A stretch of 47,357 bases of DNA, taken from Pseudomonadota bacterium. Its GTDB lineage: Bacteria > Pseudomonadota > Alphaproteobacteria > Caulobacterales > Caulobacteraceae. Positions 11,755 through 47,357 of this stretch are shown here, piece after piece (position 1 is the first letter of the stretch; the number at the start of each line of letters is the position of its first letter). The notes beneath the pieces were generated by a model. It did not search any database, was not told the DNA's origin, and saw only the letters and a program-made list of their open reading frames with translations. A program made the translations under genes and the position numbers. The stretch is taken from positions 1-47,357 of the forward strand of contig JAEXKM010000475.1 of the NCBI GenBank assembly GCA_023445705.1, written 5' to 3'.

Positions 11755-11768
11755 GCCCAAGCAACATT

Positions 11769-30276: not shown

Positions 30277-30336
30277 CTGAGCGGCCGTTCCGCCCTGCGC
30301 CGGACTCTAGGCTGTCGTGGCGCCTCATTTAACCCG

Positions 30337-31311: not shown

Positions 31312-33230
31312 GGCCAGCTTTCGTCATGGGAGAGATCGCAGACTGTGAGCACCGCCTGGGCCGAAGGCTGCGTCTCTCGGGCCGGCGCCTGCAAAGGCCT
31401 TTGCGCCTCGCCCACGGGCCGCACGCCCAGCCAGTCGATCTGCGGCGGCGGGGGAAGATCGGCCTGGCCGCGACGCTGGATCCAACGCGCCCGTTCACCG
31501 CCGAAATGATTGCGCGCCCGAGCCGCCAGTCCCGGCTCGGCATAGTAACGCAGCTTCTCGGTCACGAAGGGCCGGGCGTTGTTGACGAACAGAAACTGCC
31601 GGTCGGCCGCCAGGCCGCGGACATCCTGTTCGCCAAGGATGTAGCGCTCGGCCTCGGACCGGCTGCGGGTGCGATGGCCCTTGCCCAGCAGCGCCCGCGG
31701 CTCGCTGAAGCTCTCGCGCATCTCCAGGGACTTGCCCGCGCGGCGGATCACCCGGTCGATGCTTTCAGGCTCTGAGGTCGCAAACGCCACGGTGATATGG
31801 CAGTTGTCGAAGATCGAACTGCGCGAGCCATAAGCCTTGGCGATGTCGTTGAAGCTCTGGCAGATCAGGTGTGCGCTCAAGCCATAGCCGGCCATCTCGC
31901 CCAGCGCATTTTCCAGGAACGGCAGCGCCCCCAGCTTCGGAAATTCGTCCAGCATCATCAGCACCCGGTGACGCTTCGGCCGGCCGCGGTGATCGGTGTC
32001 CAGGTGCTCCATCAGTGAGCTGAACGACTGGCGCAGGAAGACCCGCGCCAGAAAGGCCAGCCGGTCGGCATGGGCCTGCGGGGTGATCAGGTAGCAGCTC
32101 ACCGGCGTGGCTGCGCAGGCCAGGTCGGCGACGCAGAAATCCGACCAGCTGGTGGCCGCATCCACCAACGGATCCGCCCAGAGCGCCAACGACTTCTGGG
32201 CGGTGGCCAGCACGCTCGAGCGGACCCTGGGTTCCATGCCCCGCAGCGCCATGGCCCCGAGCCGCACCTCCGGATGGGTCTCGGGGATGGCCGCGCCGGT
32301 CTTGTCCCGCGCCAATCCCTCAGGATCGGCCCCGTCCGGCCGCCAGCGATGGCGGACGCTGACCATTGCTTCCAGTGTCGGCTCGATGTCGATGAGCAGC
32401 CGCCGGACAAACCCGAGGTTCTTATCCTTGTCCTCGGCCGCATAGAGCACATGCAGGATGAGCCCCACGAAGAAGCTGGCCGCGCTCTGGTCGAAGAAAT
32501 CCAGCTGGCCCTGCCGGGCGCCCAGAGGATCGACCAGGATGCCGACGATGTTCTGCACGTCGGCCACCTCCATGGGGCCCTTGCGGACCTCAAACAGCGG
32601 GTTCCAGCGTGCGGTGTCTGGATCCGAGGGCGCAAAATAGAAGGTGTGGGAGATGCGCTTCCGGTGATCGGCGGTGATGTGCCAGAGCTCGCCCTTCCGG
32701 TCGTAGACGAAGACGCTCTGGTCCCAGTTGAGCAAGGTGGGCGCCACATGCCCTGCCCCCTTGCCCGAGCGCGAGGCCCCGATGATCAGGCAGTGCTCGA
32801 TCCCCTTGAAGGTCAGCAACCGCCCCTCCAGGCGGCCGAGCACCCGCCCAGAGGTCTTCTCGCCGTTCACAAGCTGCGCACGCCGCGCGTCCGCCAGGTC
32901 GCCCCAGGCCCCCGTCCCGAACGGGGCGGGCGCGGCGACGCCCCGCCCTGTCAGCGCCCCGGCCAGGCCGACCGGGAGCAGCAGCGCCCCAAGGCCTGCG
33001 AGCAAGGCCAGCTCGAACGCCTCGGGATAGGCCCGGCCATAGAGCAGGCACCAGCCGATCACCGACCAGGGCGGGTAGAGCGGCAGACCAAAAGCCGTCG
33101 TCCAGGAGGCGCCCAACCCGCTAGCGTACTCAAGCCCGTGGGCGGCCAATTGCGTGCCGATCGCTAAACCAGCCAGGCCCCCTGCGCCGCTGACACTAAG
33201 CAGCAGCCCTGCCCGCCTGCGCCCTTCCAT
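31308..33230 (-). CDS. traG: Type IV coupling protein TraG/VirD4
   Basis: N-terminal TMs, SRSGKG, DRKGE, WNPL.EVR, MLDEFP.LG, QS...I...YG. Confidence 0.92.
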   Translation of the reverse strand: MEGRRRAGLLLSVSGAGGLAGLAIGTQLAAHGLEYASGLGASWTTAFGLPLYPPWSVIGWCLLYGRAYPEAFELALLAGLGALLLPVGLAGALTGRGVAAPAPFGTGAWGDLADARRAQLVNGEKTSGRVLGRLEGRLLTFKGIEHCLIIGASRSGKGAGHVAPTLLNWDQSVFVYDRKGELWHITADHRKRISHTFYFAPSDPDTARWNPLFEVRKGPMEVADVQNIVGILVDPLGARQGQLDFFDQSAASFFVGLILHVLYAAEDKDKNLGFVRRLLIDIEPTLEAMVSVRHRWRPDGADPEGLARDKTGAAIPETHPEVRLGAMALRGMEPRVRSSVLATAQKSLALWADPLVDAATSWSDFCVADLACAATPVSCYLITPQAHADRLAFLARVFLRQSFSSLMEHLDTDHRGRPKRHRVLMMLDEFPKLGALPFLENALGEMAGYGLSAHLICQSFNDIAKAYGSRSSIFDNCHITVAFATSEPESIDRVIRRAGKSLEMRESFSEPRALLGKGHRTRSRSEAERYILGEQDVRGLAADRQFLFVNNARPFVTEKLRYYAEPGLAARARNHFGGERARWIQRRGQADLPPPPQIDWLGVRPVGEAQRPLQAPARETQPSAQAVLTVCDLSHDESWP

Positions 33231-33331
33231 CGGCCCCTCCTCCGCCAAATCCAGGGGCGCAGTTCAAACTGCGCGGCCGGCCGCGCCAATTCCGGAGAAA
33301 TCGGGAAAGAGCCCCGCGATCTTCTCGGCCG

Positions 33332-34822
33332 CTAGCGATCTGGCCAAGGGCCCAGGGGCCGGGACGCACGCAGGACCTTATCCAGGGCGGCCTGCTGAGC
33401 GGCGGGGCCATGGGCCTGCAAGGCCGCCACGACGCGGCGATCAACCTCTCGAACCGCCTGCCCCACCCCAAGACGCATCTGCGAGGGGGCCGCCATGACC
33501 TCCTGGCCAAGCTCGCGGGCCACCAGCAGCTTGGTGCGGGTTCTCGCCACCTGCTCGATCCGGCGGTCTGCGCGCTTGATCTTGCGCTCAAGCGTGCGCC
33601 GCTCGCGCTCGGCCCCGTCCTTGGCCTGCTGGCCCGGATGCAGGCGGGCGGCCACATAGGCTTTTCCAGCCGCAGAGGCCAGCCAATCACGGCGGACCCG
33701 CCAGGCCGCATCGGCCGCCGCCAACGCCTGCCGATCCCGCGTCAGCCGATTGAGTTCGGCATGGGCGGCCCAGACCATCCGGCCAGGCTGGCTGATCCAT
33801 CGCGCAAGGCTCTGACGCTTGCGTCGCGAAGCCTCGATGCGAGCCTGGCTGCGCAGGAGCCTGGCCTGGGCCGCTCGCCGCATCCGAAGGCTTTCACCCA
33901 ACACCTCTTGCGCCACCTCACGGCCACTTGGCCGCTCAGGAACGGCGATCGCATCCAGCTGCCGGCTCCAGCCGGCGCGTTCGGCCACCATGCTTTGGTG
34001 GATGGACTGGAATTCATCGATCACCAGGCCGATCGGGTAGGCCTTGGCCTCTGCCCTCGCGGCCATCTGGTCTTCCAGCGCCGCGATCTCCTGTGGCCGG
34101 CGAAGCCTTTCGGCGTTGCGTTCGGCGATCTTGCGGTTGGTCTCGCCCCGATCCGAGGCCTCGCCGCGCCGCTCCATGGCCGAGGCCGCAGGCCCAAGAT
34201 GCACCGTTGGCTCCCGGCCCTCGCCTTGGGTGCGCAGACTAAGGTGGCTCACCTGCGGCGCTTCTGGCCCCAGAACCTCGCGCAGATGCCGGTTCTGGAT
34301 CTCCGCCCACAGCACCCGCAGCTCCCGCACCACCTCTGGATTATCCCAGGCGCGGCCCTTGAGGCCGAAACCTTCGGCGCTGACCTCCCGGGTGGTGACC
34401 ATTACGTGCGCATGGTGATTGCGCGGGTCGCCGTGTGGGTCGGGACGGTGGATGGCGTAGTCGGCGATCATCCCCTTGGCGACCAGGGCCTCACCCACAA
34501 AATCGCGCAGCAGCTGGTGACGCTGGTGATCCGAAAGCTCGTGCGGCAAGGACAAAAGCACCTCGCGGGCTGTCCTGGAATCCGCCCGACGGTCGGCGGC
34601 CTCGGCCGCATTCCAGAGCCCTTCGCGTTCCAGCAGCCGGCCGGGCGTTTCGCCCGGCGCCATGATCCCAGCCACCACCACCCCGCCTCGGGCGGCGTAG
34701 TCGAAGACCATCTCCAGCCGCTCATCGCGCAGGCGAGTGGCTGAACGATAAGCAGCCGCGGCCACGGCCGAACGCCCCTCACCGCGTTTGATCGCCTGAA
34801 TTTCCAGCCGGTACTGAGCCAC
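33332..34822 (-). CDS. mobA: MobA/MobL (MOBQ) relaxase
   Basis: GTG 34822: AQYRL.I..I.RG.GRSAVAAAAYRS, LWNAAE, AREV..SLPHEL, AIH, NHHAHVM. Confidence 0.92.
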   Translation of the reverse strand: MAQYRLEIQAIKRGEGRSAVAAAAYRSATRLRDERLEMVFDYAARGGVVVAGIMAPGETPGRLLEREGLWNAAEAADRRADSRTAREVLLSLPHELSDHQRHQLLRDFVGEALVAKGMIADYAIHRPDPHGDPRNHHAHVMVTTREVSAEGFGLKGRAWDNPEVVRELRVLWAEIQNRHLREVLGPEAPQVSHLSLRTQGEGREPTVHLGPAASAMERRGEASDRGETNRKIAERNAERLRRPQEIAALEDQMAARAEAKAYPIGLVIDEFQSIHQSMVAERAGWSRQLDAIAVPERPSGREVAQEVLGESLRMRRAAQARLLRSQARIEASRRKRQSLARWISQPGRMVWAAHAELNRLTRDRQALAAADAAWRVRRDWLASAAGKAYVAARLHPGQQAKDGAERERRTLERKIKRADRRIEQVARTRTKLLVARELGQEVMAAPSQMRLGVGQAVREVDRRVVAALQAHGPAAQQAALDKVLRASRPLGPWPDR

Positions 34823-34945
34823 CCGTCTTCTCTCCAGCCGACGTCGGCGGGCCTCTGCAACAAGGCTCCGCCTGGGATCGCTAAGGGCCTTGGCCCTTGG
34901 CTCGACCTTGCGCGGCAAGGTCGAAGGTCGGCGCGCCGACCGCAG

Positions 34946-34974
34946 GCATTCAACGAATGCATAACTGCGCCCTT
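34946..34974 (+). other. Candidate oriT of MOBQ/RSF1010 type
   Basis: Inverted repeat GCATTC-aac-GAATGC followed by ATAACTGCGCCCTT (one mismatch to TAAGTGCGCCCT), lying between divergent mob genes. Confidence 0.8.
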
Positions 34975-35051
34975 GTCACACCAACGCTTCAACCGCTACG
35001 CTTCCCCTCGCCCCTGGTCAAGCCGCCGACCGCCACCACGGACCAAACCCC

Positions 35052-35567
35052 ATGGCCCCCGCCAGGCCCCGCGCCCGCCCCGGCAAGAACGAAACGCCCG
35101 AGCAGCGCGCCCGTCGCCTTGCGGCCCTGGCGGTCACCCTCGCCGAACGCGAACACCGCGCCGCCAGCGCCCTGGCCGCCGCCACCGGCGCCCTTCCCCG
35201 CAACCGCAGCCATGTCCTGCCGCTGGAAGCCATCGAAGACGAGACACGCCGCCTTGCGGTCTGGCAGGCGCGGGTGGAGCGGCTCGAAGCCCTGCTGGAT
35301 CGCACCGAGCGTCGCCGTGAGGCCCGGGCCAAGATCGTGCTCGGCGCAAGTCTGCTGGCCGAGGCCCGGGACGGTGATCGCGACGACCTGCTGAAAACCC
35401 TTGTGGACGTGCTGGACCGCCGGGTCCTGCGCCCCCGCGACCGCCAGGCCTTGGCCGAGACCCTCGGCCTGCCCTTGCAAGCCCTGCCCGCACGCGCCGC
35501 TCCCGAGCTTCCCGACTTCGAGGCCATGGCGGCCGCCCGGCTGGCCAAGCAGCCGCCGCCCCGCTGA
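35052..35567 (+). CDS. Mobilisation accessory protein (MobC/MobS/TraD-like)
   Basis: Divergent from the relaxase across oriT; RRREARAKIVLGA motif. Confidence 0.7.
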   Translation: MAPARPRARPGKNETPEQRARRLAALAVTLAEREHRAASALAAATGALPRNRSHVLPLEAIEDETRRLAVWQARVERLEALLDRTERRREARAKIVLGASLLAEARDGDRDDLLKTLVDVLDRRVLRPRDRQALAETLGLPLQALPARAAPELPDFEAMAAARLAKQPPPR

Positions 35568-35568
35568 C

Positions 35569-36225
35569 CTAGGGCGCCTGTCGCGCGTCCTCGGCGATCT
35601 CTCCGCTTTCCAGGACGAAGAGGCCACGAACGCCAGGATGACCCGATAGCCCGAGGGCCCCGCCCGCCGGCTTGAAGGTCTCAGCGCCGCTGGCGGGATA
35701 GAAGCTATGGTCGCCAATGACCGCGCTCGGCCGCCGTCCGCCAAAATCAACGAGGGCGGGGGAGACCGCCCCGGCCCGGGCCCGTTCGGCGACGATGGCG
35801 GGATTTTGGAAATAGAGCGCCCCGCCGGTCGGATCGGGAAGCCTGCCCTCAAGCGCCAGGTTGAGGATGACCTCGATGCGGGCGCGTTGCGTCGGCGAGA
35901 CCGGCGCCAGACGCCGCCAGTCGCCGCCAGCCCGCCACACCGGCTCAAACTGGCGCGGCGCATTGAGCACCGCCTCAATGCTCGAGCCCCAGGCCCCGCT
36001 GTCCAACCGGTTGAGCACCGTAAACACTACCCCGGCAAGGCCGCCATCCCCCTGCCCTGCCGCCTCGGCGTAGGCGACGCGCGCGATCGCCTCGCGCGCG
36101 CCCGGCGCCTCGACCTTGGCCTTCAAGGCCGCAAGTTCGGCCGAGCCTGCAGCCGTCGCCCAGACGGCGCCGACAACGGCGATCAGGACGGCGTTGAGAA
36201 CCCTGCGCCTCACCTCACCACCCAC
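35569..36225 (-). CDS. SleB-family cell wall hydrolase
   Basis: AYAEAAGQG, V.TVLNR, QFEP, DPTGGALYFQNP, IGDHSFY. Confidence 0.85.
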   Translation of the reverse strand: MGGEVRRRVLNAVLIAVVGAVWATAAGSAELAALKAKVEAPGAREAIARVAYAEAAGQGDGGLAGVVFTVLNRLDSGAWGSSIEAVLNAPRQFEPVWRAGGDWRRLAPVSPTQRARIEVILNLALEGRLPDPTGGALYFQNPAIVAERARAGAVSPALVDFGGRRPSAVIGDHSFYPASGAETFKPAGGALGLSGHPGVRGLFVLESGEIAEDARQAP

Positions 36226-36704
36226 AGGGGCCGGAAGACGCCGATCAGATCGGTGTCGCGGACCGGCCCGAAATAGCGGCTGTCGAAGCTCTTGGGGATA
36301 CGGCTCGAAAACGCGGCATATTCTCCGGCGCCCAGGACCCGGCAGCCCTGCCAGTGCGGAAGCTCGCGCCCGGCGCTGTCGCGCTCGATCACCGCCCCGA
36401 GCGCCTCGCCATCAAGGACCAGCATCTGACCTTCGATGCAAAGCTGCGCTCCAGGTCCAGCCACCAGCTCCTTGAGGATGCCGCCGCGGCCGATCTGCGG
36501 CATGTGGGCGGCGACATAGGTCCTGGCCGCGGGCGGCGGATGAAAGGCCACGAGCCGTCCCGGCCCCGGCTGCGCCAACGAGCGCACATAGAACCCGACC
36601 GGCTCGCTCGCAGATCCGTTGAAGAGAAGTAGCGGCTGCGGCGCAGCTAGGCTGGCGAGAGCGACTGCGGCCGGGAGGCAGCACCAGGCAAGACGGCGGT
36701 CCAT
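36210..36704 (-). CDS. Conjugative S26 peptidase (TraF-like)
   Basis: N.SASEPVGFY, LKELVAGPG, DSAGRELP.W.GC, SFDSRYFGPV. Confidence 0.88.
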   Translation of the reverse strand: MDRRLAWCCLPAAVALASLAAPQPLLLFNGSASEPVGFYVRSLAQPGPGRLVAFHPPPAARTYVAAHMPQIGRGGILKELVAGPGAQLCIEGQMLVLDGEALGAVIERDSAGRELPHWQGCRVLGAGEYAAFSSRIPKSFDSRYFGPVRDTDLIGVFRPLWVVR

Positions 36705-36767
36705 AGCCTGCGAGCATCAGCCGGCCGGCCAGCCTCCGGCAATTCCGCAGAACTCAGGATGTCGCGT

Positions 36768-36784
36768 CGGTCACTGAAACCCCG
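36768..36784 (+). repeat. Solo iteron copy CGGTCACTGAAACCCCG
   Basis: Identical to origin iteron 3 (39348-39364). Confidence 0.8.
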
Positions 36785-36795
36785 AACCTTGCCGA

Positions 36796-36811
36796 CTTGC
36801 CAATTGGCAAG
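36796..36811. repeat. Palindrome CTTGCCAATTGGCAAG (candidate parS)
   Basis: Directly after the parB stop; identical to three copies at 40384-40571. Confidence 0.8.
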
Positions 36812-36812
36812 C

Positions 36813-37844
36813 TCAGCGCGCGGGGCGCAGCTTGGCCAGTTCCCGCTCGAAGGCGGCGAGGAAGTCGGCGTTGGGGGCCTCAGCATCGAGCGCGAGCTCC
36901 AGGACCACCTTGCTCGCTCCCTTCGGCTTCAGACTGAAGAGCGGGACCGCCTTGTCGTTCTTCACCAGCTTAGGCGCAGCAGGCCGCGGCGCGGCCGGGC
37001 CCTGCCCAAGGGCTGCGGCCTTCAACGCCGCCACCACCTTGGCCGGCTCCAGCGAGGGCTGGCCCGCGGCGCGGCGCGCGGCCTGGACTTCGGCGAGCTT
37101 CTTGGCCTCGGCCATCATCCGGCTGCGGGCCGGATCGGCCGCCAGGTGCGGCTTGAGCTCGCGGGCGTGGTTTTCGCGCAAGGCCAGCACATCCCCGAAC
37201 GCCTCGACCACGCCGCGGGGCAGCTTGGCCAGATCCAGGAACCTGGAGAGCCAGGTCTCCTTGACCTCGAGCCGCTCGGCCATGCGCCGGGCCACGCCGC
37301 CGTAATAGGTCTCCACCGCCTCGCGGTAGTCGAGGGCGCGTTCATAGTCGCTGATGTCCAGGCGCGAGCGGTTTTCCACATCCGCGAGCCGGAACGCCGC
37401 CTCGTCGGTAAGCTCGCGCTCCTCGATCAGGAACTTGATGTCCCGGTGCTCGACCTGGCGCAGATAGCTGATCGACCAGTGCCGGCGGGCCCCGCAGATG
37501 ACCTCGTAGTCGTAGTTCGCGTCGCCCTCGATGCGGCGCACGATGGCCGGAAACTCCTGGGCGCCCTGCGCGCGCAGGCTTTCCAGCAGATCCCCGCAGA
37601 CCTCCGGCGAGAGCAGGTCATAGCGGCGATTGTGCCGAACCCACATCTTGCAGCGGGCCGGATCCACCAGCCGCAGGGTCTTTTCCTTGATGTCGCCGGA
37701 GGTGACCCTGGCCAGGGCCGACAGTCGCTCGGTGACGCGGCCGGGGATGACGGGCGCTGCCCCCTCCCCTGCCGATGACGGGGTTTCAGTGACCGGTGCG
37801 ACCAGACCAGCCAGGATTGAGCGGTTCTTGCCTGTCGTGGACAT
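36813..37844 (-). CDS. parB: Plasmid partition protein ParB/RepB
   Basis: Q.FPAIVR, YEVICGARRH, ENRSR.DIS.YE, HTH. Confidence 0.92.
   Translation of the reverse strand: MSTTGKNRSILAGLVAPVTETPSSAGEGAAPVIPGRVTERLSALARVTSGDIKEKTLRLVDPARCKMWVRHNRRYDLLSPEVCGDLLESLRAQGAQEFPAIVRRIEGDANYDYEVICGARRHWSISYLRQVEHRDIKFLIEERELTDEAAFRLADVENRSRLDISDYERALDYREAVETYYGGVARRMAERLEVKETWLSRFLDLAKLPRGVVEAFGDVLALRENHARELKPHLAADPARSRMMAEAKKLAEVQAARRAAGQPSLEPAKVVAALKAAALGQGPAAPRPAAPKLVKNDKAVPLFSLKPKGASKVVLELALDAEAPNADFLAAFERELAKLRPAR
37779..37795 (-). repeat. Inverted solo iteron inside the 5' end of parB
   Basis: CGGGGTTTCAGTGACCG is the reverse complement of iteron 3. Confidence 0.75.
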
Positions 37845-37855
37845 CGACTATCTCC

Positions 37856-39064
37856 CTAAGCAAGCCCGAGCCGGCGAAGCTCTGCCCGATGGCTCGGCCA
37901 GGCCTTGCGGATCAGCAGTTCGATCTCGCCGTTCACCCGATCAAGATTGTTGCGGCAGCGCTCGTGCGTGCGGTTCCCGCCGGGCGGGATCTCATAGACG
38001 GTGCGCAGCTGGACGTTGGCGTTGTCGATCTCGGCGGAGTCCAGCAGCGAGGCGTTGAGCATGTCGACGCCAAACACCGCCTCCATCATCTCGCGGATCT
38101 GCACATGGGCGCTCTTGCCTTCGTCGACCTTGGTGGCGACGACGCGGAGGAAATGGTAGCCGCGCTTGCCCAGGCCGTGCTCGTCGAGCACCTCGAGGGT
38201 GTCGACGATCATCCGCAGGAAGTGGGCGGTCGAGGCGAAATCGACCGTCGACGGCGGGGTCGGGATCAGCAGGGCGTTGGCGGCCCGTAGCACCGCCAGC
38301 GAGATCATGCCCAGAGCCGGCGGCGGGTCGAGTAGGACTACGTCATACCGCTCGGCCATACTTTCCACCCCGCGGCGAAGGCGCTCGAGCGCATCTGCGT
38401 TGCCCCGCATCCGAGCTGCGGCCTCGTACTCGGCCTGATAGAGCCCCAGATTGGACGGGATAAGGTCGATCCCCGGCCAGGCGGTCGGGCGGAGAGCGTA
38501 CTGCAGGTCAGGCGCCCCGCCATGCCGGAAGAACGGCAGCAGGGTTTCTTCGTCGTCGATGTCTATGTCGGGGTTGAACCCGCAGAGCGTGGTCGAGCTC
38601 GCCTGGCTGTCGCAGTCGACGATCGCCACCCGGTAGCCTTTCAGCGCCAAGTATTGGGCGATGTGGCAGGTGAGCGTGCTCTTGCCCACCCCGCCCTTGA
38701 AGTTCTGCACCGCCAGGATGATCGGCGGATCGCCCTCCCCGCGCCGGGGCCGGGTCCCAAAGACGTCGCGCATATGGTTCACTTCGGCCAGGCTGTAGCC
38801 CTCACGCCGGCCGTTGGCGCTCAGGCGCGGCGGCGGCAGGCGCCCCTCGGCCTCGGCCTGCCGGATGGCTTCGGAGCTGCGGCCGACCATTTCGGCGGTT
38901 TTGGTGATGGTGAAGCGGAAGTCGACGATCTTCTCATCGCCCGGCGCAAAGACGCTGGCCCGCAAGCGGGAGATCACATCCTCGGCCCGCTGGTTGAGCG
39001 CGGCCATGGCGTCAAGCAGCACCGGACCTGAAACCGGCTCTTTCACATCGGCGACAGGCGACAT
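37856..39064 (-). CDS. parA: Type Ia ParA ATPase with N-terminal HTH
   Basis: NFKGGVGKST, VDCDSQAS, LLDPPPALG; N-terminal winged HTH. Confidence 0.93.
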   Translation of the reverse strand: MSPVADVKEPVSGPVLLDAMAALNQRAEDVISRLRASVFAPGDEKIVDFRFTITKTAEMVGRSSEAIRQAEAEGRLPPPRLSANGRREGYSLAEVNHMRDVFGTRPRRGEGDPPIILAVQNFKGGVGKSTLTCHIAQYLALKGYRVAIVDCDSQASSTTLCGFNPDIDIDDEETLLPFFRHGGAPDLQYALRPTAWPGIDLIPSNLGLYQAEYEAAARMRGNADALERLRRGVESMAERYDVVLLDPPPALGMISLAVLRAANALLIPTPPSTVDFASTAHFLRMIVDTLEVLDEHGLGKRGYHFLRVVATKVDEGKSAHVQIREMMEAVFGVDMLNASLLDSAEIDNANVQLRTVYEIPPGGNRTHERCRNNLDRVNGEIELLIRKAWPSHRAELRRLGLA

Positions 39065-39302
39065 GGGCGGGCCTCCTTTGCAAATTCCAGCTTGGCTATC
39101 GTGATTTTGCCAAGTTGTCCTTCGCAATGGTAAACGCCGCCTTAATTTAGCGCGGGCGAGCGCGAACCCTCATGGTTCGCGTACCGCCCAAGCCAGCCTC
39201 TCCGCCGCCCCGTTAGGAAGATTCGATAATGGGCAGGTTAGAAGGCTTAAGCGCCGCCACGGCGCTGAAAAACCAAGCGCCACAACGCTTTCCAAACATG
39301 GG

Positions 39303-39387
39303 CGGTCACCGATACCCCGAGTGACGGTCACCGAACCCCCGAGGCCACGGTCACTGAAACCCCGGGCTCTCGGTCACTGATCCCCCG
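39303..39387 (+). repeat. Four 17-bp iterons (CGGTCACYGAWHCCCCG), candidate oriV
   Basis: Copies start at 39303, 39325, 39348 and 39371 (spacing 22, 23, 23 bp), between repA and parA, next to a more AT-rich tract. Confidence 0.85.
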
Positions 39388-40348
39388 AGGAAGCGCGCCG
39401 CCGCGCAAACATCGCGTCGACCTCCCCTGCCCTCTCGTCCTCCTGGGCCCGCCGGGCGTCTGATTCTGAAAGCGCCAGGATGCTTGCCTTGAGCTTTGCC
39501 TTCTCGGCGGCGTCGCGGCGCACGAAATGGATCGCAGCGGCGCCGTCGCGGGTCGTGGTCGGAGAGAGCGCGTAGTCGGGCAAGTCGTCGGCCGCGACGA
39601 TCTTCTTCATCAGGTAGGCGAACTGCTTGAGCGGGCTCTCGCTGCCGGTCTTCTCGTGCAAGACGCTCAGCCGGCAGACCCATCCGTCGGGCTGGTCGCC
39701 GGCGTGCTTGCGGGCGATCCGGTAGATGGCCCGCTCCAGCCCGCCTGATAGCGTGAAGTAATCAGGGTGTAGGGTGAGCAGCGAGCGCTCCTTGAGCACG
39801 CCTTCATAGACCCAGTTTGAAAGCGTCAGGCTCAGACCCTTGGACGCTCCCGTCACTGGATCGGTCTCCAGCACGAACTCGTCGAGCCAGCCGAACTGGG
39901 CGCGCTTGTTGCGCTTGGGCGCCCGGATCGAGGTTTCGATGACCGTCGACTGCAAGCGCTCGAGCGCCGCCTCCAGCTCCTTGTAACCCTTGCCGCCGGT
40001 GTCCCGGCGGATGGCCCGCAAGAGCTCGTAGGCGCTGATGTGGATGGTCCGCGGGAGATCGTTCGAACCAGCTTCGCGCATCTGATTGAGGCGTGAGGTC
40101 GCCCAGATCAGGATGTCGGCGTCCCAGATGGTGGCGATGCCAAAGCGCGGGTTGGCGCTGACATGCACCCAGACGTCACCGTCGGGACTGGTGTACTCGA
40201 TCGGCTTGAGCCGCTTGCGCTTGCTGAGCGCGAAGAAGGGCCGCTCCATCACCTCCCGCTGGTCCTTCAGCCGAAGGTCCCCCATGCGGGGCATGAAGAG
40301 ATCGAACTCCTGCTGGCGAATCGCGCGCTTGGACATGACGGGGTCCAT
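39374..40348 (-). CDS. repA: Replication initiator protein A (alphaproteobacterial RPA family)
   Basis: KDQREVMERPFFALSK, GIATIWDADILI, L.RLQST.I.T, YF.LSGGLER.IYRIARKHAG. Confidence 0.92.
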   Translation of the reverse strand: MDPVMSKRAIRQQEFDLFMPRMGDLRLKDQREVMERPFFALSKRKRLKPIEYTSPDGDVWVHVSANPRFGIATIWDADILIWATSRLNQMREAGSNDLPRTIHISAYELLRAIRRDTGGKGYKELEAALERLQSTVIETSIRAPKRNKRAQFGWLDEFVLETDPVTGASKGLSLTLSNWVYEGVLKERSLLTLHPDYFTLSGGLERAIYRIARKHAGDQPDGWVCRLSVLHEKTGSESPLKQFAYLMKKIVAADDLPDYALSPTTTRDGAAAIHFVRRDAAEKAKLKASILALSESDARRAQEDERAGEVDAMFARRRASSGDQ

Positions 40349-40383
40349 TGTGCCCAAAGCCTGGGAAGAAGGGCAGGGGAGGG

Positions 40384-40571
40384 CGAACTTGCCAATTGGC
40401 AAGTTCGGCAAACGGCTCACCCGCCGCGCCGAAATTCCTCGGCCGATCTCAAACTTGCCAATTGGCAAGTCGCCCCACCGGACGCCCACCTACGCATCCC
40501 CGGGCCGCACCAGCTGCTGCTTACCACTCCCAACGGCGACGGCTTTCCACCAACTTGCCAATTGGCAAGTT
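40384..40571. repeat. Three (A)ACTTGCCAATTGGCAAGT palindromes upstream of repA (candidate parS array)
   Basis: Copies at 40384-40407 (24-bp perfect), 40453-40470 and 40552-40571. Confidence 0.85.
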
Positions 40572-41593
40572 CACACCCGCCAAGCCCGAAAGCGCGACCG
40601 TCCGCTGATCTCGGCCACGACCGAGCCGAGCTCTTCGAGCGAGCGACGGGCGCTCTGCTGGGTAACGCCGAGCCGCGCTGCGATCATCGGCGCGGTGACC
40701 ACGGGCGAGGCCATGAGGAGCTCCATCACTTCGCCGGCCCGGGCGTGGGCGCGGCGACCTTCGACCTGCCGCGCCATCACCTGGCGTGCGAGCGCCAGCC
40801 GCTTGAGTTCAGCCTGGCCCTCGTCAGCGGCTTCCTTCATGACCAGGAGCCAGTAGGCGAGACGCCGCATCACCGAGCCGCCTCGCAACTCTCGGCCCCG
40901 TCGCTGGATGTTGCGAAGGCCCGCCTCAAGACCGAGGAGGTGGCTGACCACGCGCCGCTCCCGCTGCAGCCAAAGGCCCACCGCGATGGCGCCGAGGTAG
41001 CGCTGGCGGGGCAGGGGATCGATGATCCACCAAGCTTCCAGCAGCCCGGCTGCGCGCAGGAGGGCAGGAATGTCGGTATCCAGCGCCGACGCCACGTCCA
41101 GCCATTCGGCCATCCCTTCGCGCGCGCTGGCGGCCTCGCCGTCCTCGAGCCCTCGCAGCATCCGCTCAAGCCGCTCGATCATGCCGGGCCGGTCGGGGTC
41201 CTCACGCAGCAACGGGCGCGGCCTGGTCACTGATCCCCCGACAGCAGCCGGCGGCTTGGCCCGCTGGCCAGCCAGCCAGGTCAGGCCATCGAGATCGAGC
41301 AGGGAAGGCCCGCCGATCACCGCCTTGCGCCGCGCGGCGACCACGCCGTGGGCCGCACGAAGCCCTGCATTGGGTAAGTGCAGGTCCATGCCCTCGTCGT
41401 GCAGGACAAGGTCCTCCAGCCGCGTGACCTCGCCTTGCGTCCAGCTCCAGGCGATCGCCTCTGCAAAATCGCGGCGGGCGGCGAACCCCACCCTCCAGGG
41501 GCAGGCGGCGACCTGCTCATCGAGGCGGCTCACCGCCTCATCGGCCGCCGACAGACGTGAGAAAACCAGGTCCGCAGACGCTTCAAGCAGCAT
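40571..41593 (-). CDS. RHE_PE00001/DUF1612-like plasmid protein with C-terminal HTH
   Basis: RLDE, DFAEA, LEDLVLHD..MD, C-terminal EISGRSRFRAW. Confidence 0.75.
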   Translation of the reverse strand: MLLEASADLVFSRLSAADEAVSRLDEQVAACPWRVGFAARRDFAEAIAWSWTQGEVTRLEDLVLHDEGMDLHLPNAGLRAAHGVVAARRKAVIGGPSLLDLDGLTWLAGQRAKPPAAVGGSVTRPRPLLREDPDRPGMIERLERMLRGLEDGEAASAREGMAEWLDVASALDTDIPALLRAAGLLEAWWIIDPLPRQRYLGAIAVGLWLQRERRVVSHLLGLEAGLRNIQRRGRELRGGSVMRRLAYWLLVMKEAADEGQAELKRLALARQVMARQVEGRRAHARAGEVMELLMASPVVTAPMIAARLGVTQQSARRSLEELGSVVAEISGRSRFRAWRV

Positions 41594-41692
41594 GTGAAAA
41601 TCCCCGTTAAAACAGAGCCTTCACTCAGGCGACGAACACTTATTAACCCAAACTTTACCTTGCTTAACGCTTCCCGCAAGCCAGCGGACAAA

Positions 41693-41718
41693 GCCGCGGC
41701 GCCAACCGGCGCCGCGGC
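41693..41718 (-). terminator. Probable intrinsic terminator of ssb
   Basis: Perfect 11-bp stem GCCGCGGCGCC-aacc-GGCGCCGCGGC followed on the minus strand by TTTGT. Confidence 0.65.
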
Positions 41719-41725
41719 CCTGAAC

Positions 41726-42088
41726 CTAGGTTTCGTCCGGGGCTCCCTCGGGCCGGTCCAGCGCCTTCACCTCATGCTGGGGCGTGGCGACCATCACCTT
41801 GGAGAAGAAGCGCTCCTTGCCGGCCTCATCGACGTAGCGGTCGTGGCGGATCTCACCTTCCACATAGACCTTGGCGCCGGTCGGCAGGCCGCGGGCCTCG
41901 AGCCAGTTGATGGTTCCCTGGTTCCAGATCTCGACCTGGTGCCAGGTGGTGAAATCGCGCCGCTCACCGCCCTTCTTGCTGTAGCGGCTGGTCGCAACCC
42001 GCAGGGAGGCCACCTTCTTGCCCTCGCTGATGGTCCGGATCTCGGGCTCTGCGCCGGTGAAGCCGATCAGTTGAACCTTGTTGAGCAT
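41726..42088 (-). CDS. ssb: Single-stranded DNA-binding protein
   Basis: MLNKVQLIG..G.EPEIR, TTWH.V, G.KVYVEG.I; short C-terminal tail. Confidence 0.92.
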   Translation of the reverse strand: MLNKVQLIGFTGAEPEIRTISEGKKVASLRVATSRYSKKGGERRDFTTWHQVEIWNQGTINWLEARGLPTGAKVYVEGEIRHDRYVDEAGKERFFSKVMVATPQHEVKALDRPEGAPDET

Positions 42089-42508
42089 CGTCTTTCTCCG
42101 TCTCCCAGCGAGAAGGGCCTCGCTGGTCCGCGGCTCCGCCGCGATCACGCCGCCCAACGGGGTGGGTGAGGGGAGGGAAAAGAAGCCCGGCCACGCTGGA
42201 AACCGGCCTGCACGCGCGCAGCAAGGAAGGCCGGAGGGTCCGGCAAGACCGCCTCGAAGAGGTCGGCTTCGCACCCGAGCGCCCACCCCAGGGTTTGCGT
42301 ATCAGATCGCAGGCGCCGCTGACCGGCCGGGCCAACCACGGAGCCAGAAAGACCCATGCCAAGGGCCAACAGGCTCGCCGCCGGCGCGCCAAGCCCGCGA
42401 TCCAGCCACAGTCAGGCTGTCAGACACCCAAGGTCCAAGTTCAGACGACAAGATAAAATGGGGCAGGGGAGGGGAGAGCCTTCCGGCATGGGCGTCGCCC
42501 CAGGGGCC

Positions 42509-43435
42509 TCAGTCCTCCGCCAGCCCGGCCAGCCCGGCCAGCCCGGCCAGCCGCTCACGACACACCGCCTCGACCAGGTCCTGCAGAATCGCCACCCGCT
42601 CGGAGATCCAGGTCAGCTCGCGTTCGTTGATCTTGTAGTGCGGCGAATAGCGCGCCTCGACATAGGCGCGGCGCAGGAGCTCGAAGCACCGCCGATCGGA
42701 CCGCTTCTCACGGGGCCACGCCGCCATCAGCCGCGGGTCCAGCTGCTCGGCTTGGGAGCGCAGGAAGTTCAATCGATGGGTCTTGGGACTATAGAGCGTC
42801 GCCACCAACAGGGCGCAGACATAAAGACGCTCTGCAGCTTGGTGAAATAGAAAGGCCGCCTCCTTTGGCATGCCATCCCGGGTGGCGACCATTCCGAGAT
42901 GTACAAAACGACCGGCGCTGCCAAACCACTCCTCGAAGTACCCTTCCGCTTCGCGCAGCGCCTCCGCCGGCGCAAGCGCCTGCGGCTGATCGAACGGATG
43001 GCCCGAGGCCTCGTAGAGCGAGATCCCATCGCGCAGGACATCGACGAAGAAGTAGCGCCCTAGCCGCAGCTTCTCATTTACGTCGGCGAGGTCATGAACG
43101 ATGAAGCTCACCGGCGCGCTGAGCCGGTGCGAGACCAGGTAGTCCCTGGCCAGGCGTTCGTCAGCCCTGACCCAATACTCCTGCAGGTCTGTGAGCTTCG
43201 GATCGTTGACCACAACCAGCAGGTCGTAGTCCGAGAAGTAGCCGCCGACCGGATCGTCCACCCACTTGCCGGTCGCATATGAGCCGAAGAGCACGACCTT
43301 CAGGATCTCGGCCGACCGTTTGTGCTCGCTAGTCCCAAATGCGACCGAGGCCTCGAACTCCTTGAACAGCACCTTGAGCGCCCAGGCGATATCCTGGCGC
43401 TTGGCCTCCGGCAGGTGCTCCAGGCTTGTGCGCAT
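42509..43435 (-). CDS. Fused nucleotidyltransferase (MNT)-HEPN protein
   Basis: LFGSYATG...SDYDLL, then AAF.FHQAAER, KTH.L, LRRAYVEARY. Confidence 0.88.
   Translation of the reverse strand: MRTSLEHLPEAKRQDIAWALKVLFKEFEASVAFGTSEHKRSAEILKVVLFGSYATGKWVDDPVGGYFSDYDLLVVVNDPKLTDLQEYWVRADERLARDYLVSHRLSAPVSFIVHDLADVNEKLRLGRYFFVDVLRDGISLYEASGHPFDQPQALAPAEALREAEGYFEEWFGSAGRFVHLGMVATRDGMPKEAAFLFHQAAERLYVCALLVATLYSPKTHRLNFLRSQAEQLDPRLMAAWPREKRSDRRCFELLRRAYVEARYSPHYKINERELTWISERVAILQDLVEAVCRERLAGLAGLAGLAED
42519..42552. repeat. 9-bp tandem repeat (GCCAGCCCG, about 3.8 copies) encoding LAG repeats at the HEPN C-terminus
   Basis: Read directly from the sequence. Confidence 0.8.
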
Positions 43436-43499
43436 GTCCTTATGTTCAAGCTTGCAGCCCAGGTTGCAAGCCAGAGTTCTACGCAGATGCGCAAAGCGG

Positions 43500-43666
43500 A
43501 TGTCTGCAAGGGGCTCTAAGCGGTCCATCACGACGTCCGCTCCAGGCTAAGGTTGGCGGGCGCGGCAATGACTAGGTCGGGCTCGCAGCGGTCCACTGTG
43601 ATGCCCGCTCCGGGCCATCAAGCCCCGCGTCGCCGGCAATGACCAAGTTGGGCCCTGAATTGACCT
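43500..43666 (+). repeat. Degenerate direct repeats with about 70-bp period
   Basis: ATGNCNNNNNNGGGCTCNNAGCGGTCCA...AYGYCCGCTCCRGGC at 43500 and 43568; partial third copy at 43639. Confidence 0.6.
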
Positions 43667-43783
43667 CTCTACGTCCGGTTAAAAGCGGAAGCCCAAACCA
43701 GCCTGAAGGCAGTAGAGGGCTACGTCACAATCTGAACGCTGTCCCCCGCCGTGCGAAGCGCTTGAGTGATGCAAGCCCATCGA

Positions 43784-44329
43784 TCAGGAGAGCTGCTGAT
43801 TCCACGTGATGATCGGGATGTCCTGGCCCTTGTAGTCTGCGTCGTCGGTCACGAGCGTCAGGCCATTGCGGCGGCACAAGCTCGCGATCAGGATATCGTG
43901 GAACTCAAGTCCGCCGGCTTCCGCAGCGGCGTAGCAGGGCTCCATTTCCAAGGCGTCGAAGCCATCAGGCAATCTTGTGTGATCGCCGAGGATCGCATGA
44001 AGCAAATCACAAGCTTCTTTGATCCATGCTCCATAGTTTGCGGCGGCGTGGATCTTCCCACGGCCGTCGTGCCCGTCGGCCCTAGCCAGCATGACGACAG
44101 CGCGGTTGAGGAACTCTCCGGCGACGATCTGGGGGATAAAGATCTCCGCGCCGCTCTCCAGGGCGCGCTTATAGACGGCGCTGTATGCTGCAACTCTCTT
44201 CGGCTTGTCGGGGAACGGTCCTCCAATGCTAAGCCAGACGTTCGCATCGAACATCAGTCCCCGCGGAAGCACCTCATCAAGTTGACACTGGTCAGAGCCC
44301 TGAAGGTAGAAGCGCTCAGCCATCGCCAC
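43784..44329 (-). CDS. PIN-domain ribonuclease
   Basis: MFDANVW, AGEFLN, FHDILI, LVTDDADY give the D-E-D-D active-site pattern. Confidence 0.85.
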   Translation of the reverse strand: MAMAERFYLQGSDQCQLDEVLPRGLMFDANVWLSIGGPFPDKPKRVAAYSAVYKRALESGAEIFIPQIVAGEFLNRAVVMLARADGHDGRGKIHAAANYGAWIKEACDLLHAILGDHTRLPDGFDALEMEPCYAAAEAGGLEFHDILIASLCRRNGLTLVTDDADYKGQDIPIITWNQQLS

Positions 44330-44675
44330 GCGTGTCGGCTACAATTCCGCTTATCCGAACGGGGTCTGCAAAGAACCGTTTTGCATTGTCTACCACACGC
44401 TTAAGCAAACCAAGCTGTTCGGGGGTCGCTTGCACGGGCGGAGCCAACGCAGTGCGAACCTGCTCTTCAGAGTATTCGTTGTAGAGCTGACCGACGGCAG
44501 AATTTAGGAAGGCAGTGGTCAAGCGTGAAACGCCCTCGAACGAGAGGGAAACGCGCTCGCCGCGCCCGAGAGCAGCGATAATCGCGTCGTGCAGTCGCGA
44601 ACCATCTTCGATAGAAACGCAAATGCTGCTTCCGACGATTTCGGTTATTCGGATGCGAGAGAGAGTAGCGGCCAT
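44316..44675 (-). CDS. STAS-like protein (DUF4325-like)
   Basis: CVSIEDG..L, V.LSFEGV..LTTAFLNSAVGQLY. Confidence 0.85.
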   Translation of the reverse strand: MAATLSRIRITEIVGSSICVSIEDGSRLHDAIIAALGRGERVSLSFEGVSRLTTAFLNSAVGQLYNEYSEEQVRTALAPPVQATPEQLGLLKRVVDNAKRFFADPVRISGIVADTRGDG

Positions 44676-45550
44676 TAGAAAATGTCTCCCGGCTTGATTT
44701 CACTCGCCAGTAGATAGGACTGAGTGTCTCTAGTGTTGACGACGATTGTGACAGCGGTTCCCGGGAAGGAGTGCGAGAGCGGGCGCATATCGACACGCCC
44801 CTGGGCCTCCCGCCAGAACCCTTCGAAGGATGCGATCGTCAGTTCCCCACCATTAAGTTGAATAAATTCGCGCAGTACCTTGAGGCCGAGACCTCCTGGC
44901 ACATCGAGTTCGCGCGTCGTATTCGCGTCGGACATCGCCCAGTCAATTGCGGCATGGGCCGAGTTCGCGTAGCCGCGCTCCACGATCTTTCGAGGAATGC
45001 CGATGCCGTGATCGACCAAAGTCATTTCCACTCGCCCGCTTTGAGGAAACAACTGCCCGCAAGCCCACGCTCCGAGCGGACTCTGGGCGTGAATCTCGAA
45101 GTTGGTAAAGAGCTCATGGATGCCACTGAAAAATTGCTGCTCAAGCCCTTTGGACATGCGCGGCAGACCTTTGTTCTCAAGCCCCTTCCTCGCGTAGAGA
45201 TCGAACCTCGCGCTTTCGCCGGACGCAAACCTCATAAGCGGGATTGCGCTACTTCGCGGTCGCTGATGCTGCGCGCCGAATAGCCCGCTATCAATCAAAA
45301 CCGCCCTCACGGCCGGCTTTAAATTCACGAGGACCAATCCTCGCCCCACCGCAGAGAGCCGTGCGTGTACAGCTGCCAGCGCCGCGCTCAGGTTCCCGTT
45401 GCAGAAGTTCAGCTCGGAGCAATCTACGTGCACCTGAGCGCTCTTCGCCACGAGAGCGATCGAATAGAGCTCGGCGAAGCCAGCAAAGGTCCGGGCTTCA
45501 GTTCTTCCGAAGCGCAGATGGTATATGGGGGCGGTTGTGGCGTCGTTCAA
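44675..45550 (-). CDS. STAS plus GHKL/HATPase ATP-binding protein (anti-sigma-kinase-like)
   Basis: N-terminal VDCSELNF STAS-like segment; N-box ELFTN...HA, G1 DHGIGIP, G2 GGLGL, G3 PGT. Start codon uncertain. Confidence 0.82.
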   Translation of the reverse strand: MNDATTAPIYHLRFGRTEARTFAGFAELYSIALVAKSAQVHVDCSELNFCNGNLSAALAAVHARLSAVGRGLVLVNLKPAVRAVLIDSGLFGAQHQRPRSSAIPLMRFASGESARFDLYARKGLENKGLPRMSKGLEQQFFSGIHELFTNFEIHAQSPLGAWACGQLFPQSGRVEMTLVDHGIGIPRKIVERGYANSAHAAIDWAMSDANTTRELDVPGGLGLKVLREFIQLNGGELTIASFEGFWREAQGRVDMRPLSHSFPGTAVTIVVNTRDTQSYLLASEIKPGDIF

Positions 45551-45832
45551 ACTGGCGGGCTCGGCATTTCGTCGCAGACACTAACACAGTCGCGGTAGGG
45601 AGGCTCCATGAAGTGATGCCTAGACCGGACTTGAGCGCGGCCGGTCCTTCACCAAGCCCCGCGCCTCGAGCTCTAGCGAGCCGTTTCCGAGCTGGGGATG
45701 GATGTCCAGTAGTGGCGCTAGGCGGCGGCCATTCTGCCGCCCAACCGTGCGGCGCCGGACTGCGAACGTTCGAGACGTCTCTCCTGGGCTCATCGCTGCC
45801 CCTGACAATGTCCGCCTTTTGGAGTGGCAGCT

Positions 45833-47357
45833 TCAGTAGGCACCGACGATCTTGACGACCTTCTTGCACTGAGCCCGAAGCTGGGTCGGGTCCGGCCGCG
45901 ACGTGCCTCGGTGATGATCCGGGCGGCTGAACTCATTCAGACTACGGAGGTCGGCGCGATGGTCGTAAAGGTGGTCGGCCGACCCGGCCGCGTCAATCTC
46001 CTCGACCATGGCGCCCAAAAGCGTTCGCGCCGCGAAACGTCCTGGAAATCGCAGATCGATATACTCTTCGACGAAGACCCTGATGTCGCTGGCTAACAGC
46101 GCGGGTGAACAACCGGTGAGATGCTGGCCTGTCGAGGCATAGGCACGGATACGTTCACCCCGCCGGACGTAGTCGGTCTTCACCTCGTCCTCTACGTTCC
46201 ACGCTTTCAAGTTGGCCACCCAGTCGCTTTCAGCGACGATTTGGTGCTGGGTCACCGCTAGAGGACCCTTGTCCTTCTCGATAAGGTGCAGGAAGCGGGG
46301 ATCATGCGACAGCACCACCACCTGCCGGGCGCTGGCCGCGATCAACCGAATCTGAGACGCGGTCTCGAACTGGCGCGCCGTGTCTTGGCTGTTGAACGGG
46401 TCGTCGAATACTACGATGCAATCGTCTATGTCGACGCGCTGCCGGACTTGGGTGATGAAGAGCGCCAGCGCCAAGCTGGACTTATCGCCGGCGCTAAGGA
46501 CGGTGCGGAAACTAGGTTTGGTCACATTTCCTGACTCGCCAGCCTTCAGGATATGGCCGTTGACGTCTATGCAATATTCGGTGTTCGGGTCGCGCCCGAC
46601 ATAGCTGGCCTTGGTTTGACACAAGCGGAAGTTGGCACCGAACGCCTCCAACAGTTCATTGATTCCCGCCTCGTAGGCCGTCGCCGTGGCCTCGACGTGC
46701 GCAGTAAGGGCCTTCTGGGCGTTTGTCCGGTCGGTAGCCAGCGTAGTGCGTTCCGCTGTCTTAGCGATCCAATTGTCGCATAGGGTTTTCAGTGGCTCAT
46801 GAGCCTTGGCCTGCAGCGCGACCCGCTTGTCGACTGCCTCTTGGAGCTCGCGCAACTGCGCCGGCGTCAGCCGCGCCTCATTCTCCTTCCGGACGACCTC
46901 GATGGCCTGATTGCAAGCGAGAATCTGGCGAGCATGGTCCTCGAGACGCATGATCGCCTCCTGGGCGTGTCGCGCCTGATCCGCGTTGAGCGAGAGCGGC
47001 TCCAGAGGAGCGACGACTTTCCGCTCCAGGGCCGCCGCGACCGCGCCGAACGCTTCATCGATCACAGCGAGGTCGGCCTCGCCCAGGTCGTCGAGCGGCG
47101 GAAGCTCGCCGACCTGGCGCCAGAACTCCATCGCCGAGCGGTTGGCCTGCACAACCTCGCGGACGCTGCCGGTCTGTCCGGCCGCGAGCAGGGCCTTAAA
47201 GATCGACAATTGTGTTTCCAGGGTGCCGACGAGGGCCGTGAAGGCGACGCCAAACATCACCTTGAAGTCGGCCGCGATCGCAGAGGCCCTCAAGTCCTGG
47301 TCACAATATGGGCAGGTCTCCTTGGCCCGGTCGGTCCCGTAGACGAGCCAGCGGCGG
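45833..47357 (-). CDS. RloC-like ABC/SMC ATPase with zinc hook and C-terminal HEPN-like domain (5' end outside the window)
   Basis: Frame stays open past the window end; CPYC at 47303-47314, coiled coil, LSAGD signature, VFDDP Walker B, LSHD H-loop, C-terminal IR.FVE...RSLNEFSRPDHH. Confidence 0.8.
   Translation of the reverse strand, partial: RRWLVYGTDRAKETCPYCDQDLRASAIAADFKVMFGVAFTALVGTLETQLSIFKALLAAGQTGSVREVVQANRSAMEFWRQVGELPPLDDLGEADLAVIDEAFGAVAAALERKVVAPLEPLSLNADQARHAQEAIMRLEDHARQILACNQAIEVVRKENEARLTPAQLRELQEAVDKRVALQAKAHEPLKTLCDNWIAKTAERTTLATDRTNAQKALTAHVEATATAYEAGINELLEAFGANFRLCQTKASYVGRDPNTEYCIDVNGHILKAGESGNVTKPSFRTVLSAGDKSSLALALFITQVRQRVDIDDCIVVFDDPFNSQDTARQFETASQIRLIAASARQVVVLSHDPRFLHLIEKDKGPLAVTQHQIVAESDWVANLKAWNVEDEVKTDYVRRGERIRAYASTGQHLTGCSPALLASDIRVFVEEYIDLRFPGRFAARTLLGAMVEEIDAAGSADHLYDHRADLRSLNEFSRPDHHRGTSRPDPTQLRAQCKKVVKIVGAY

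Follow-up and report, generated by a model that had tools for sequence, protein, structure and literature searches.

A putative vapKSC toxin–antitoxin operon with a predicted threonine phospho-acceptor on a Caulobacterales-type plasmid

An operon of the vapKSC kind

The DNA considered here is a stretch of 47,357 nucleotides (the window, in what follows) from a Caulobacteraceae bacterium of the Pseudomonadota, corresponding to contig JAEXKM010000475.1 of assembly GCA_023445705.1. Towards its end, between positions 43784 and 45550, the minus strand carries three consecutive genes which, with a probability that we put at about 0.88, form a vapKSC system, that is, a three-component toxin–antitoxin (TA) and anti-phage module. 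An operon of this kind is already known: vapKSC was described in 2026 by Chambers, Rani, Min, Villa and Corbett for Escherichia sp. E4736 (EMBO J 2026, PMC13373217; PDB 9z7o), as a preprint in February and as a paper in June, and in the literature searched no mention of VapKSC was found beyond these two documents. A preliminary description of the window, prepared from the letters alone, had entertained the notion that the triad might be novel, which has to be given up in view of the named system. It had also proposed that a kinase/STAS pair gates a PIN toxin by phosphorylation, in the manner of a TA or abortive infection system, and this is the very model that was published for vapKSC (PMC13373217).

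The sections of that paper drawn on here report 289 vapKSC operons and a functional dissection of the Escherichia one (PMC13373217). These authors showed that VapC is toxic and that its toxicity requires D28, that VapS neutralizes VapC in a way that depends on VapS residues 94–116, and that the phosphomimetic S48E change in VapS abolishes both the neutralization and the co-purification with VapC. The crystal structure (9z7o) corresponds to a 2:2 VapS–VapC complex. The Escherichia operon provides ~2-log protection against phage Bas42, and this protection is lost when VapC carries the D28A mutation, VapS the S48A mutation or VapK the F54A mutation. VapK itself proved to be insoluble, and phosphotransfer from VapK to VapS was deduced by the authors, as was the RNA target of VapC. 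The nature of the trigger, single-stranded DNA (ssDNA), was proposed on the basis of an AlphaFold 3 model and of the F54A mutant, F54 being equivalent to W68 of the kinase CapK and part of the predicted ssDNA site.

In the window, the first gene of the operon, vapK (44675–45550, minus strand), has a TTG start and encodes a 291-residue protein in which a STAS domain at the N-terminus is followed by a GHKL ATPase/kinase domain at the C-terminus. It is followed by vapS (44316–44675, minus strand, ATG start), whose 119-residue product consists of a STAS-like DUF4325 domain and a short conserved C-terminal region, and by vapC (43784–44329, minus strand), encoding a VapC-like PIN toxin of 181 residues when counted from the GTG at 44329. 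For vapC, a start at the ATG at 44323, yielding 179 residues, is more likely; the public protein collection contains a 179-residue form, in agreement with this start. The vapK and vapS genes share one base (TAATG), and the overlap between vapS and vapC amounts to 8 nucleotides counted from the ATG (ATGGCTGA) or to 14 counted from the GTG. The open reading frames (ORFs) are thus those of the preliminary description, three overlapping minus-strand genes. Its impression that this DNA is richer in AT than the backbone also holds, as the operon has a GC fraction of 0.582, compared with a mean of 0.677 (standard deviation 0.014, minimum 0.64) in 408 windows of the same size taken from positions 1–42508. 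Because its GC content is below that of the backbone, the operon DNA looks acquired.

On the grounds of sequence, gene order and homology to an operon of Dataset EV3 of the published work, the window operon is assigned to the vapKSC family. The Dataset EV3 operon in question is that of Nitrosomonas nitrosa Nm90 (locus L029 of the set described below), with which the window proteins share 36% identity for VapK (E=5e-57), 49% for VapS (E=7e-37) and 28% for VapC (E=3e-26). To this homology are added the K-S-C order of the genes, the combination of STAS and GHKL kinase domains in the first protein, the homology of the second one to VapS, the presence in it of a Ser/Thr at the acceptor position, and the acidic residues of the PIN domain in the third.

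General annotation resources do not identify the system. NCBIfam gave nothing above cut-off for the operon proteins, and the PADLOC v2 (2023) models gave no match for VapS or VapC. This absence of STAS and PIN matches is no sign of novelty. The kinase gives a weak match to a region of DrmA (E=5.6e-6), which is regarded as reflecting the common GHKL domain. Because the PADLOC 2023 models miss the STAS and PIN components, a DefenseFinder/PADLOC-style check of that year would wrongly suggest a novel system.

The VapS antitoxin

The strongest link to the crystallized proteins is provided by VapS. Pfam assigns to it the STAS-like DUF4325 (E=2.4e-13), a phmmer search of PDB with the single sequence retrieves 9z7o_A, “Escherichia VapS” (E=9e-11), and a family profile of 41 sequences matches the same chain with E=8.6e-24 over its full length, the C-terminal region included (profile positions 3–117, chain positions 17–129). 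In the phmmer alignment T54 of the window protein falls on residue 66 of the chain, the Ser of ‘FASPFF’. We take this residue as the native S48, assuming a tag of 18 residues, because the chain has 134 residues and the native protein ~116.

The preliminary description had drawn attention to a TT pair near the position at which SpoIIAA and RsbV carry their phospho-Ser. This pair is T53–T54, the second of which aligns with Ser48 of Escherichia VapS. Among 76 family members, column 54 is occupied by Ser in 65 and by Thr in 11, so that it holds Ser or Thr in 76/76, whereas column 53 contains Thr in 66 and Ile in 10. For this reason T54, rather than T53, is the predicted phospho-acceptor of the window VapS. 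The window protein would thus differ from that of Escherichia, which has Ser, and would belong to the 11/76 members with Thr. Towards the C-terminus, a motif composed of L91, V94, A98, K99 and F102 is almost invariant.

A STAS-bearing GHKL kinase acting on a STAS substrate with a conserved phospho-acceptor, and with ssDNA as the proposed trigger, is also what defines the CapK/CapS pair, the closest characterized relatives, which are located upstream of immune operons (PMC13373217). This raises the alternative that the two window proteins control, after DNA damage, the transcription of a defence gene nearby, for example that of the nucleotidyltransferase (NTase)-HEPN protein, found 252 nucleotides downstream on the same strand. 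However, CapK has an N-terminal helix-turn-helix (HTH) and CapS is a repressor with a C-terminal winged HTH (wHTH), and Pfam searches at E<=0.1 matched no HTH or wHTH family in the 119-residue VapS and no HTH family at the N-terminus of VapK, where the STAS domain begins at residue 18. In addition, the NTase-HEPN gene appears in 0/76 loci of the family, and the output of the window system would be a toxin instead of transcription. The operon was accordingly rejected as a CapK/CapS pair, its kinase and its STAS protein having no match to the defining HTH and wHTH, and transcriptional control of a neighbour is regarded as a most improbable explanation.

The VapC toxin

The third protein matches the PIN family PF01850 of Pfam above cut-off (E=1.7e-6). 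The acidic residues that had been described as intact are so throughout the family: in the 181-residue numbering, D28, E72 and D145 are present in 69/69 homologs, D163 in 68/69 and D165 in 67/69. A profile built from 15 VapC sequences has as its top PDB match 9z7o_C, “Escherichia VapC” (E=1.8e-5, profile positions 18–179 against chain positions 20–190), and the second match reaches only E=0.54. Therefore, VapS and VapC of the window are both homologous in sequence to the crystallized proteins, and retain the Ser/Thr acceptor and the acidic residues of the PIN domain, respectively. A difference from the Escherichia protein lies at the N-terminus of VapC, where residues 3–11 include the stretch ‘ERFYLQG’; as ‘ER(Y/F)YLQG’, it is common to, and restricted to, near relatives (51–64% identity), and it is gapped in 66–67/69 of the family members from genome loci.

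The relationship between VapC and the protein encoded directly upstream is reminiscent of that found in type II VapBC modules, in which a PIN toxin of the VapC type is neutralized through direct binding by a protein antitoxin whose gene immediately precedes it, with stop and start codons overlapping (according to the portion of PMC5499597 drawn on here). The two differ in that the VapKSC antitoxin has a STAS fold and no DNA-binding domain, and in that the release proposed for it occurs by phosphorylation, not by proteolysis; furthermore, in the Escherichia VapKSC structure the antitoxin leaves the active-site Mg2+ in place (PMC13373217). Assignment of the operon to VapBC was discarded, the upstream protein matching DUF4325 only, and no AbrB, RHH, PhD or HTH domain.

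The coupling of PIN and DUF4325 genes had been noted in a 2017 survey, without an assigned function (Matelska et al. 2017, PMC5499597). The PIN.4 cluster of that survey, in which a PF01850 PIN gene is coupled to a DUF4325 gene, resembles the window pair by domain pairing, not by a comparison of sequence clusters. The portion of its text available here makes no mention of a kinase linked to PIN.4, the terms ‘hatpase’ and ‘histidine kinase’ being absent from it.

The VapK kinase

Pfam recognizes in VapK a STAS_2 domain (residues 18–90, E=1.1e-9, above cut-off) and a HATPase_c domain (residues 171–269, E=1.8e-4), the latter with 22.4 bits, slightly under the gathering cut-off of 26.4. The ATP-binding motifs are invariant in an alignment of 20 sequences and in 65/65 loci: E146 and N150 of the N-box, D180-x-G182 of the G1 box, and G219-G220-x-G222-L223 of the G2 box; G184, also in G1, is likewise invariant in the 20-sequence alignment. 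The invariance of the G2 block is in part a product of selection, as this block lies directly before, and extends into, the residues (222–230 of VapK) that correspond to the peptide pattern used to retrieve the family. At E<=1e-10, the family comprises 712 cluster representatives among 1.84 billion.

VapK has no close relative of solved structure. Its family profile gives weak matches in PDB, to ATP-binding domains of histidine kinases (E=0.002) and, at the N-terminus, to the STAS antagonists TM1442, RsbS and SpoIIAA (E=0.04–0.4). The residue of the window protein that may correspond to the published ssDNA-site F54 is F49, which lies in a column with W in 58, F in 3, V in 2 and one gap (65 sequences). 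Escherichia VapK is not one of the sequences aligned, and none was named among the 120 matches listed from the profile search.

The mentioned weak profile matches would be in line with a classical partner switch, in which the kinase would act as a SpoIIAB- or RsbW-like anti-sigma factor and the STAS protein as its antagonist, the sigma factor would be encoded elsewhere and the PIN gene would be a passenger. In SpoIIAB/SpoIIAA and RsbW/RsbV, as is predicted here, the substrate of a GHKL Ser kinase is a STAS protein of a single domain, which is phosphorylated at a conserved Ser or Thr (PMC13373217), and a fragment of a sigma factor (Sigma70_r4_2) is found in the window at 25108–25686, ~18 kb away. 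In contrast to those systems, the window kinase has a STAS domain of its own, and its STAS partner is predicted to sequester a nuclease. Against the PIN gene being a passenger it can be said that it follows the STAS gene in 70/76 loci, from at least 16 phyla, and that a homologous VapS binds VapC directly in the crystal structure (PMC13373217); besides, the adjacent genes of the window (NTase-HEPN and AAA_13) encode neither a sigma factor nor a PP2C phosphatase. Given the lack of a linked sigma factor or PP2C phosphatase and the conservation of PIN as the third gene, the operon was rejected as a sigma-factor partner switch, an account to which we give only a very slim chance. The sigma fragment, of the extracytoplasmic function (ECF) type and on the minus strand, is not linked to vapKSC; it adjoins a TonB-dependent receptor gene (22730–25066, minus strand).

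Conservation of the triad and its neighbourhoods

The assignment of the operon to vapKSC gains weight from the conservation of the three genes. A set of 76 loci, with one genome per species, was obtained by scanning for the kinase family with the peptide pattern GLK[ILV]LR[ED]FI, whose own columns are consequently conserved by selection, and all ORFs of these loci were scanned with the profiles of the three families to establish gene order. The residue counts given above (n=76 for VapS, n=65 for VapK and n=69 for VapC) derive from an ORF set that does not include the kinase ORF of locus L004. In 70/76 loci, K, S and C are colinear on one strand, so that the triad is conserved; in 60 of these 70 the kinase is encoded by one intact ORF of 240 residues or more, and in the remaining 10 it is short or split (cut in two cases by the start of the contig). 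The other six loci include three that are cut by the end of the contig (L007, L010 and L058) and three that are decayed or rearranged. In L072 (818–1710), vapS is kept, the kinase is reduced to its C-terminal third and there is no PIN gene; in L076 (8001–9133), a kinase fragment is followed by intact S and C; and in L038 (467–2463), S-C is placed upstream of K.

The genes that accompany the triad in the window, encoding NTase-HEPN, AAA_13, SSB, DUF1612 and RepA proteins, gave 0 matches in the 76 loci. Thus, the triad is a self-contained cassette of three genes, and a larger system encompassing those flanking genes was rejected.

A quick kinase tree of 65 rows groups the window with four other rows of Pseudomonadota, Brevundimonas, Neorhizobium and Rhizobium among them, with a Shimodaira–Hasegawa-like approximate likelihood ratio test (SH-aLRT) support of 99. 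All five rows of this clade carry Thr at the acceptor position. The program warned of long-branch joins, so the deeper placements in this tree are unsure.

The surroundings of the operons were explored by comparing with PADLOC the nearest large ORF at each side (137 proteins from 72 loci). At E<=1e-40, an immediate neighbour of a PADLOC family was found in 19/72 loci, a count made without a background control; in the first batch alone, at the looser E<=1e-10, 14/38 loci had a match, three of them weak or generic. The published work places 103 of 289 vapKSC operons within 10 kb of defence genes (PMC13373217).

In some loci, the triad is found within other defence operons. In L024, L053, L055, L059 and L065 (~4400–12600 in each), vapKSC is flanked by HmaA on the upstream side and by HmaB on the downstream side; in the kinase tree these Hma-embedded copies group together, and they have the Thr acceptor in common. 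In two Nitrosomonas loci, L029 and L037 (~5670–12620), it lies between the methyltransferase (mod) and the restriction enzyme (res) genes of a Type III system, and in one Desulfuromonadales locus, L017 (6910–10628), between cas7c and cas4. A complete K-S-C triad is also present at 1420–3192 of MT837343.1 (L078), a GenBank contig of 7 kb with the label ‘UNVERIFIED: Bacteriophage sp.’; it is the sole match among 50,697 phage records, and its phage origin is that given by the unverified label.

The plasmid setting

The window operon differs from that of Escherichia in being plasmid-borne and adjoining ssb, rep and par genes. The window is plasmid-like, as it encodes RepA, ParA/ParB, a MobA/MobL relaxase, a TraG/VirD4 coupling protein, a VirB11-like ATPase and SSB; it is taken as a conjugative or mobilizable plasmid of the Caulobacterales type, of which vapKSC is apparently horizontally acquired, low-GC cargo. 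The backbone at 30300–42300 is 76–80% identical to plasmids of Phenylobacterium and Caulobacter, and the similarity ends at ssb. Past this gene, the window contains NTase-HEPN, vapKSC and AAA_13/PDC-S06, all of lower GC than the backbone, and the related plasmids contain other cargo, namely a HipA TA module and a HEPN protein in one, and Lit and AbiE in the other (L079 and L080, compared with positions 41726–43531 of the window). In these related plasmids the TA/Abi cargo is accompanied by ssb, DUF2493 and a zincin-like metallopeptidase gene. In this plasmid family, the site past ssb thus gives the impression of a hot spot for cargo.

Such a setting leads to the question of what the module mainly does in this replicon. 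It may also stabilize the plasmid, because it is cargo beside an ssb/rep/par backbone. A stronger version of this idea holds that plasmid addiction (post-segregational killing) or competition between plasmids, and not phage defence, is its main role here. The replication, partition and transfer genes listed above favour it, as do the location of the operon 1.5 kb from ssb, at a site occupied by other TA/Abi cargo in the related plasmids of Caulobacter and Phenylobacterium, and the presence in the window of a second TA pair at 10526–11754. On the other hand, carriage of the family by plasmids is rare: a kinase match was found in 1/72,556 PLSDB plasmids, P5 of Deinococcus gobiensis, whose triad is in Dataset EV3 and is annotated as ATP-binding, STAS-like and PIN proteins. 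Moreover, the sole functional readout in the published work, in the sections drawn on here, is phage protection (PMC13373217), and classical addiction would hinge on the stability of the antitoxin, here VapS. Addiction or plasmid competition as the principal role is therefore considered unlikely, although worth keeping in mind beside the anti-phage reading, with which it is compatible. A megablast search of PLSDB plasmids with positions 43500–45900 of the window gave no match.

Immediately downstream of the operon, the NTase-HEPN gene (42509–43531, minus strand) encodes a protein of 340 residues with a nucleotidyltransferase region at residues 71–118 and a HEPN region at 200–306; the C-terminal half of this protein matches PDB 4nqf, ‘Nucleotidyltransferase’ (E=7.8e-31). 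The neighbour first noted as an MNT-HEPN gene is thus a fused nucleotidyltransferase and HEPN protein, and it may be a single-chain MNT-HEPN module, similar to type VII TA systems. On the other side lies the gene that the preliminary description called RloC-like, encoding an AAA_13 ABC-type ATPase (45833–47356, minus strand), cut by the end of the window, which matches PADLOC PDC-S06 (E=3.9e-29); this candidate single-gene system is found within 10 kb of two of the Dataset EV3 operons (PMC13373217). The 282 nucleotides that separate this gene from vapK (45551–45832, minus strand) are the presumed promoter region of the operon. A consensus scan of 43400–46000 found no sigma-70-like promoter or intrinsic terminator, a search for inverted repeats around the operon yielded just three imperfect palindromes or inverted repeats of 9 nucleotides, and Rfam gave no match over 42000–47357 at E<=0.1.

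Farther away, the second TA pair (10526–11754, plus strand) consists of a 179-residue antitoxin of the Xre-like HTH/MbcA-ParS type, whose gene overlaps that of a 230-residue toxin with a RES domain. At 7137–9718, on the minus strand, two large serine recombinases of 460 and 400 residues, with Resolvase and Recombinase domains, are encoded in tandem, the first of them with an additional, weak match to HNH_repeat.

Proposed mechanism and its weighing

Applied to the window, the published model allows a mechanism to be outlined in which each step is transferred by homology. The PIN nuclease VapC would be kept from acting by VapS, which would form a complex with it through its STAS domain and would bring its C-terminal helix close to the active site of VapC. 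VapK would be switched on by ssDNA that results from DNA damage or phage infection and would phosphorylate VapS at Thr54, a residue that should be located in the VapS–VapC interface. Phosphorylated VapS would then dissociate from VapC, and the freed toxin would cut cellular RNA, probably tRNA or rRNA, leading to growth arrest and to an aborted propagation of the phage.

Several points weigh against this reading. The assignment of the window copy is founded on homology between sequences, and in the published work, as far as the sections drawn on here go, the kinase activity of VapK and its activation by ssDNA are deduced and not shown directly (PMC13373217). The HATPase_c score of VapK is, as mentioned, below the Pfam threshold, and the putative equivalence of F49 with F54 derives from an aromatic-conserved column. 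A phmmer search of PDB with the single VapC sequence gave at E<=1 no match to Escherichia VapC, which is reached by the profile alone. The similarity is low, and the window copy falls, unlike that of Escherichia, in a separate alphaproteobacterial clade, set off from the other 60 rows of the kinase tree, including Nm90, by branches of 99% support, and the trigger or the target of so divergent a clade could differ. Finally, the figure of 19/72 loci with a defence neighbour is to be read with the lack of a background control in mind.

The context of the operon, here and across the family, suggests two further ideas. A kinase-gated toxin that is encoded 1.5 kb from the ssb of its own plasmid might be tuned to ssDNA derived from conjugation or from the plasmid, rather than to generic DNA damage, and a module tuned in this way could act on incoming rival plasmids or phages, or could be silenced by the SSB of the plasmid. 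Across the family, the repeated presence of vapKSC inside other defence operons would be consistent with a toxin that serves as a second line and that is armed when the host system damages DNA. This reading of the context, with tuning to plasmid ssDNA near ssb and a second-line role within defence operons, is speculative and rather improbable.

Implications

The mechanism that was read from the raw sequence is one whose experimental demonstration dates from no earlier than 2026. With it, the genes of the operon, unrecognized by PADLOC v2 (2023), can be annotated as vapK, vapS and vapC, and a known family gains a divergent branch that is alphaproteobacterial, plasmid-borne and, as predicted here, endowed with a Thr acceptor. 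The plasmid setting and the embedding of vapKSC in Hma, Type III restriction-modification and CRISPR-Cas loci are modest leads, which bear on how toxins that sense DNA damage are layered with defences that target DNA.

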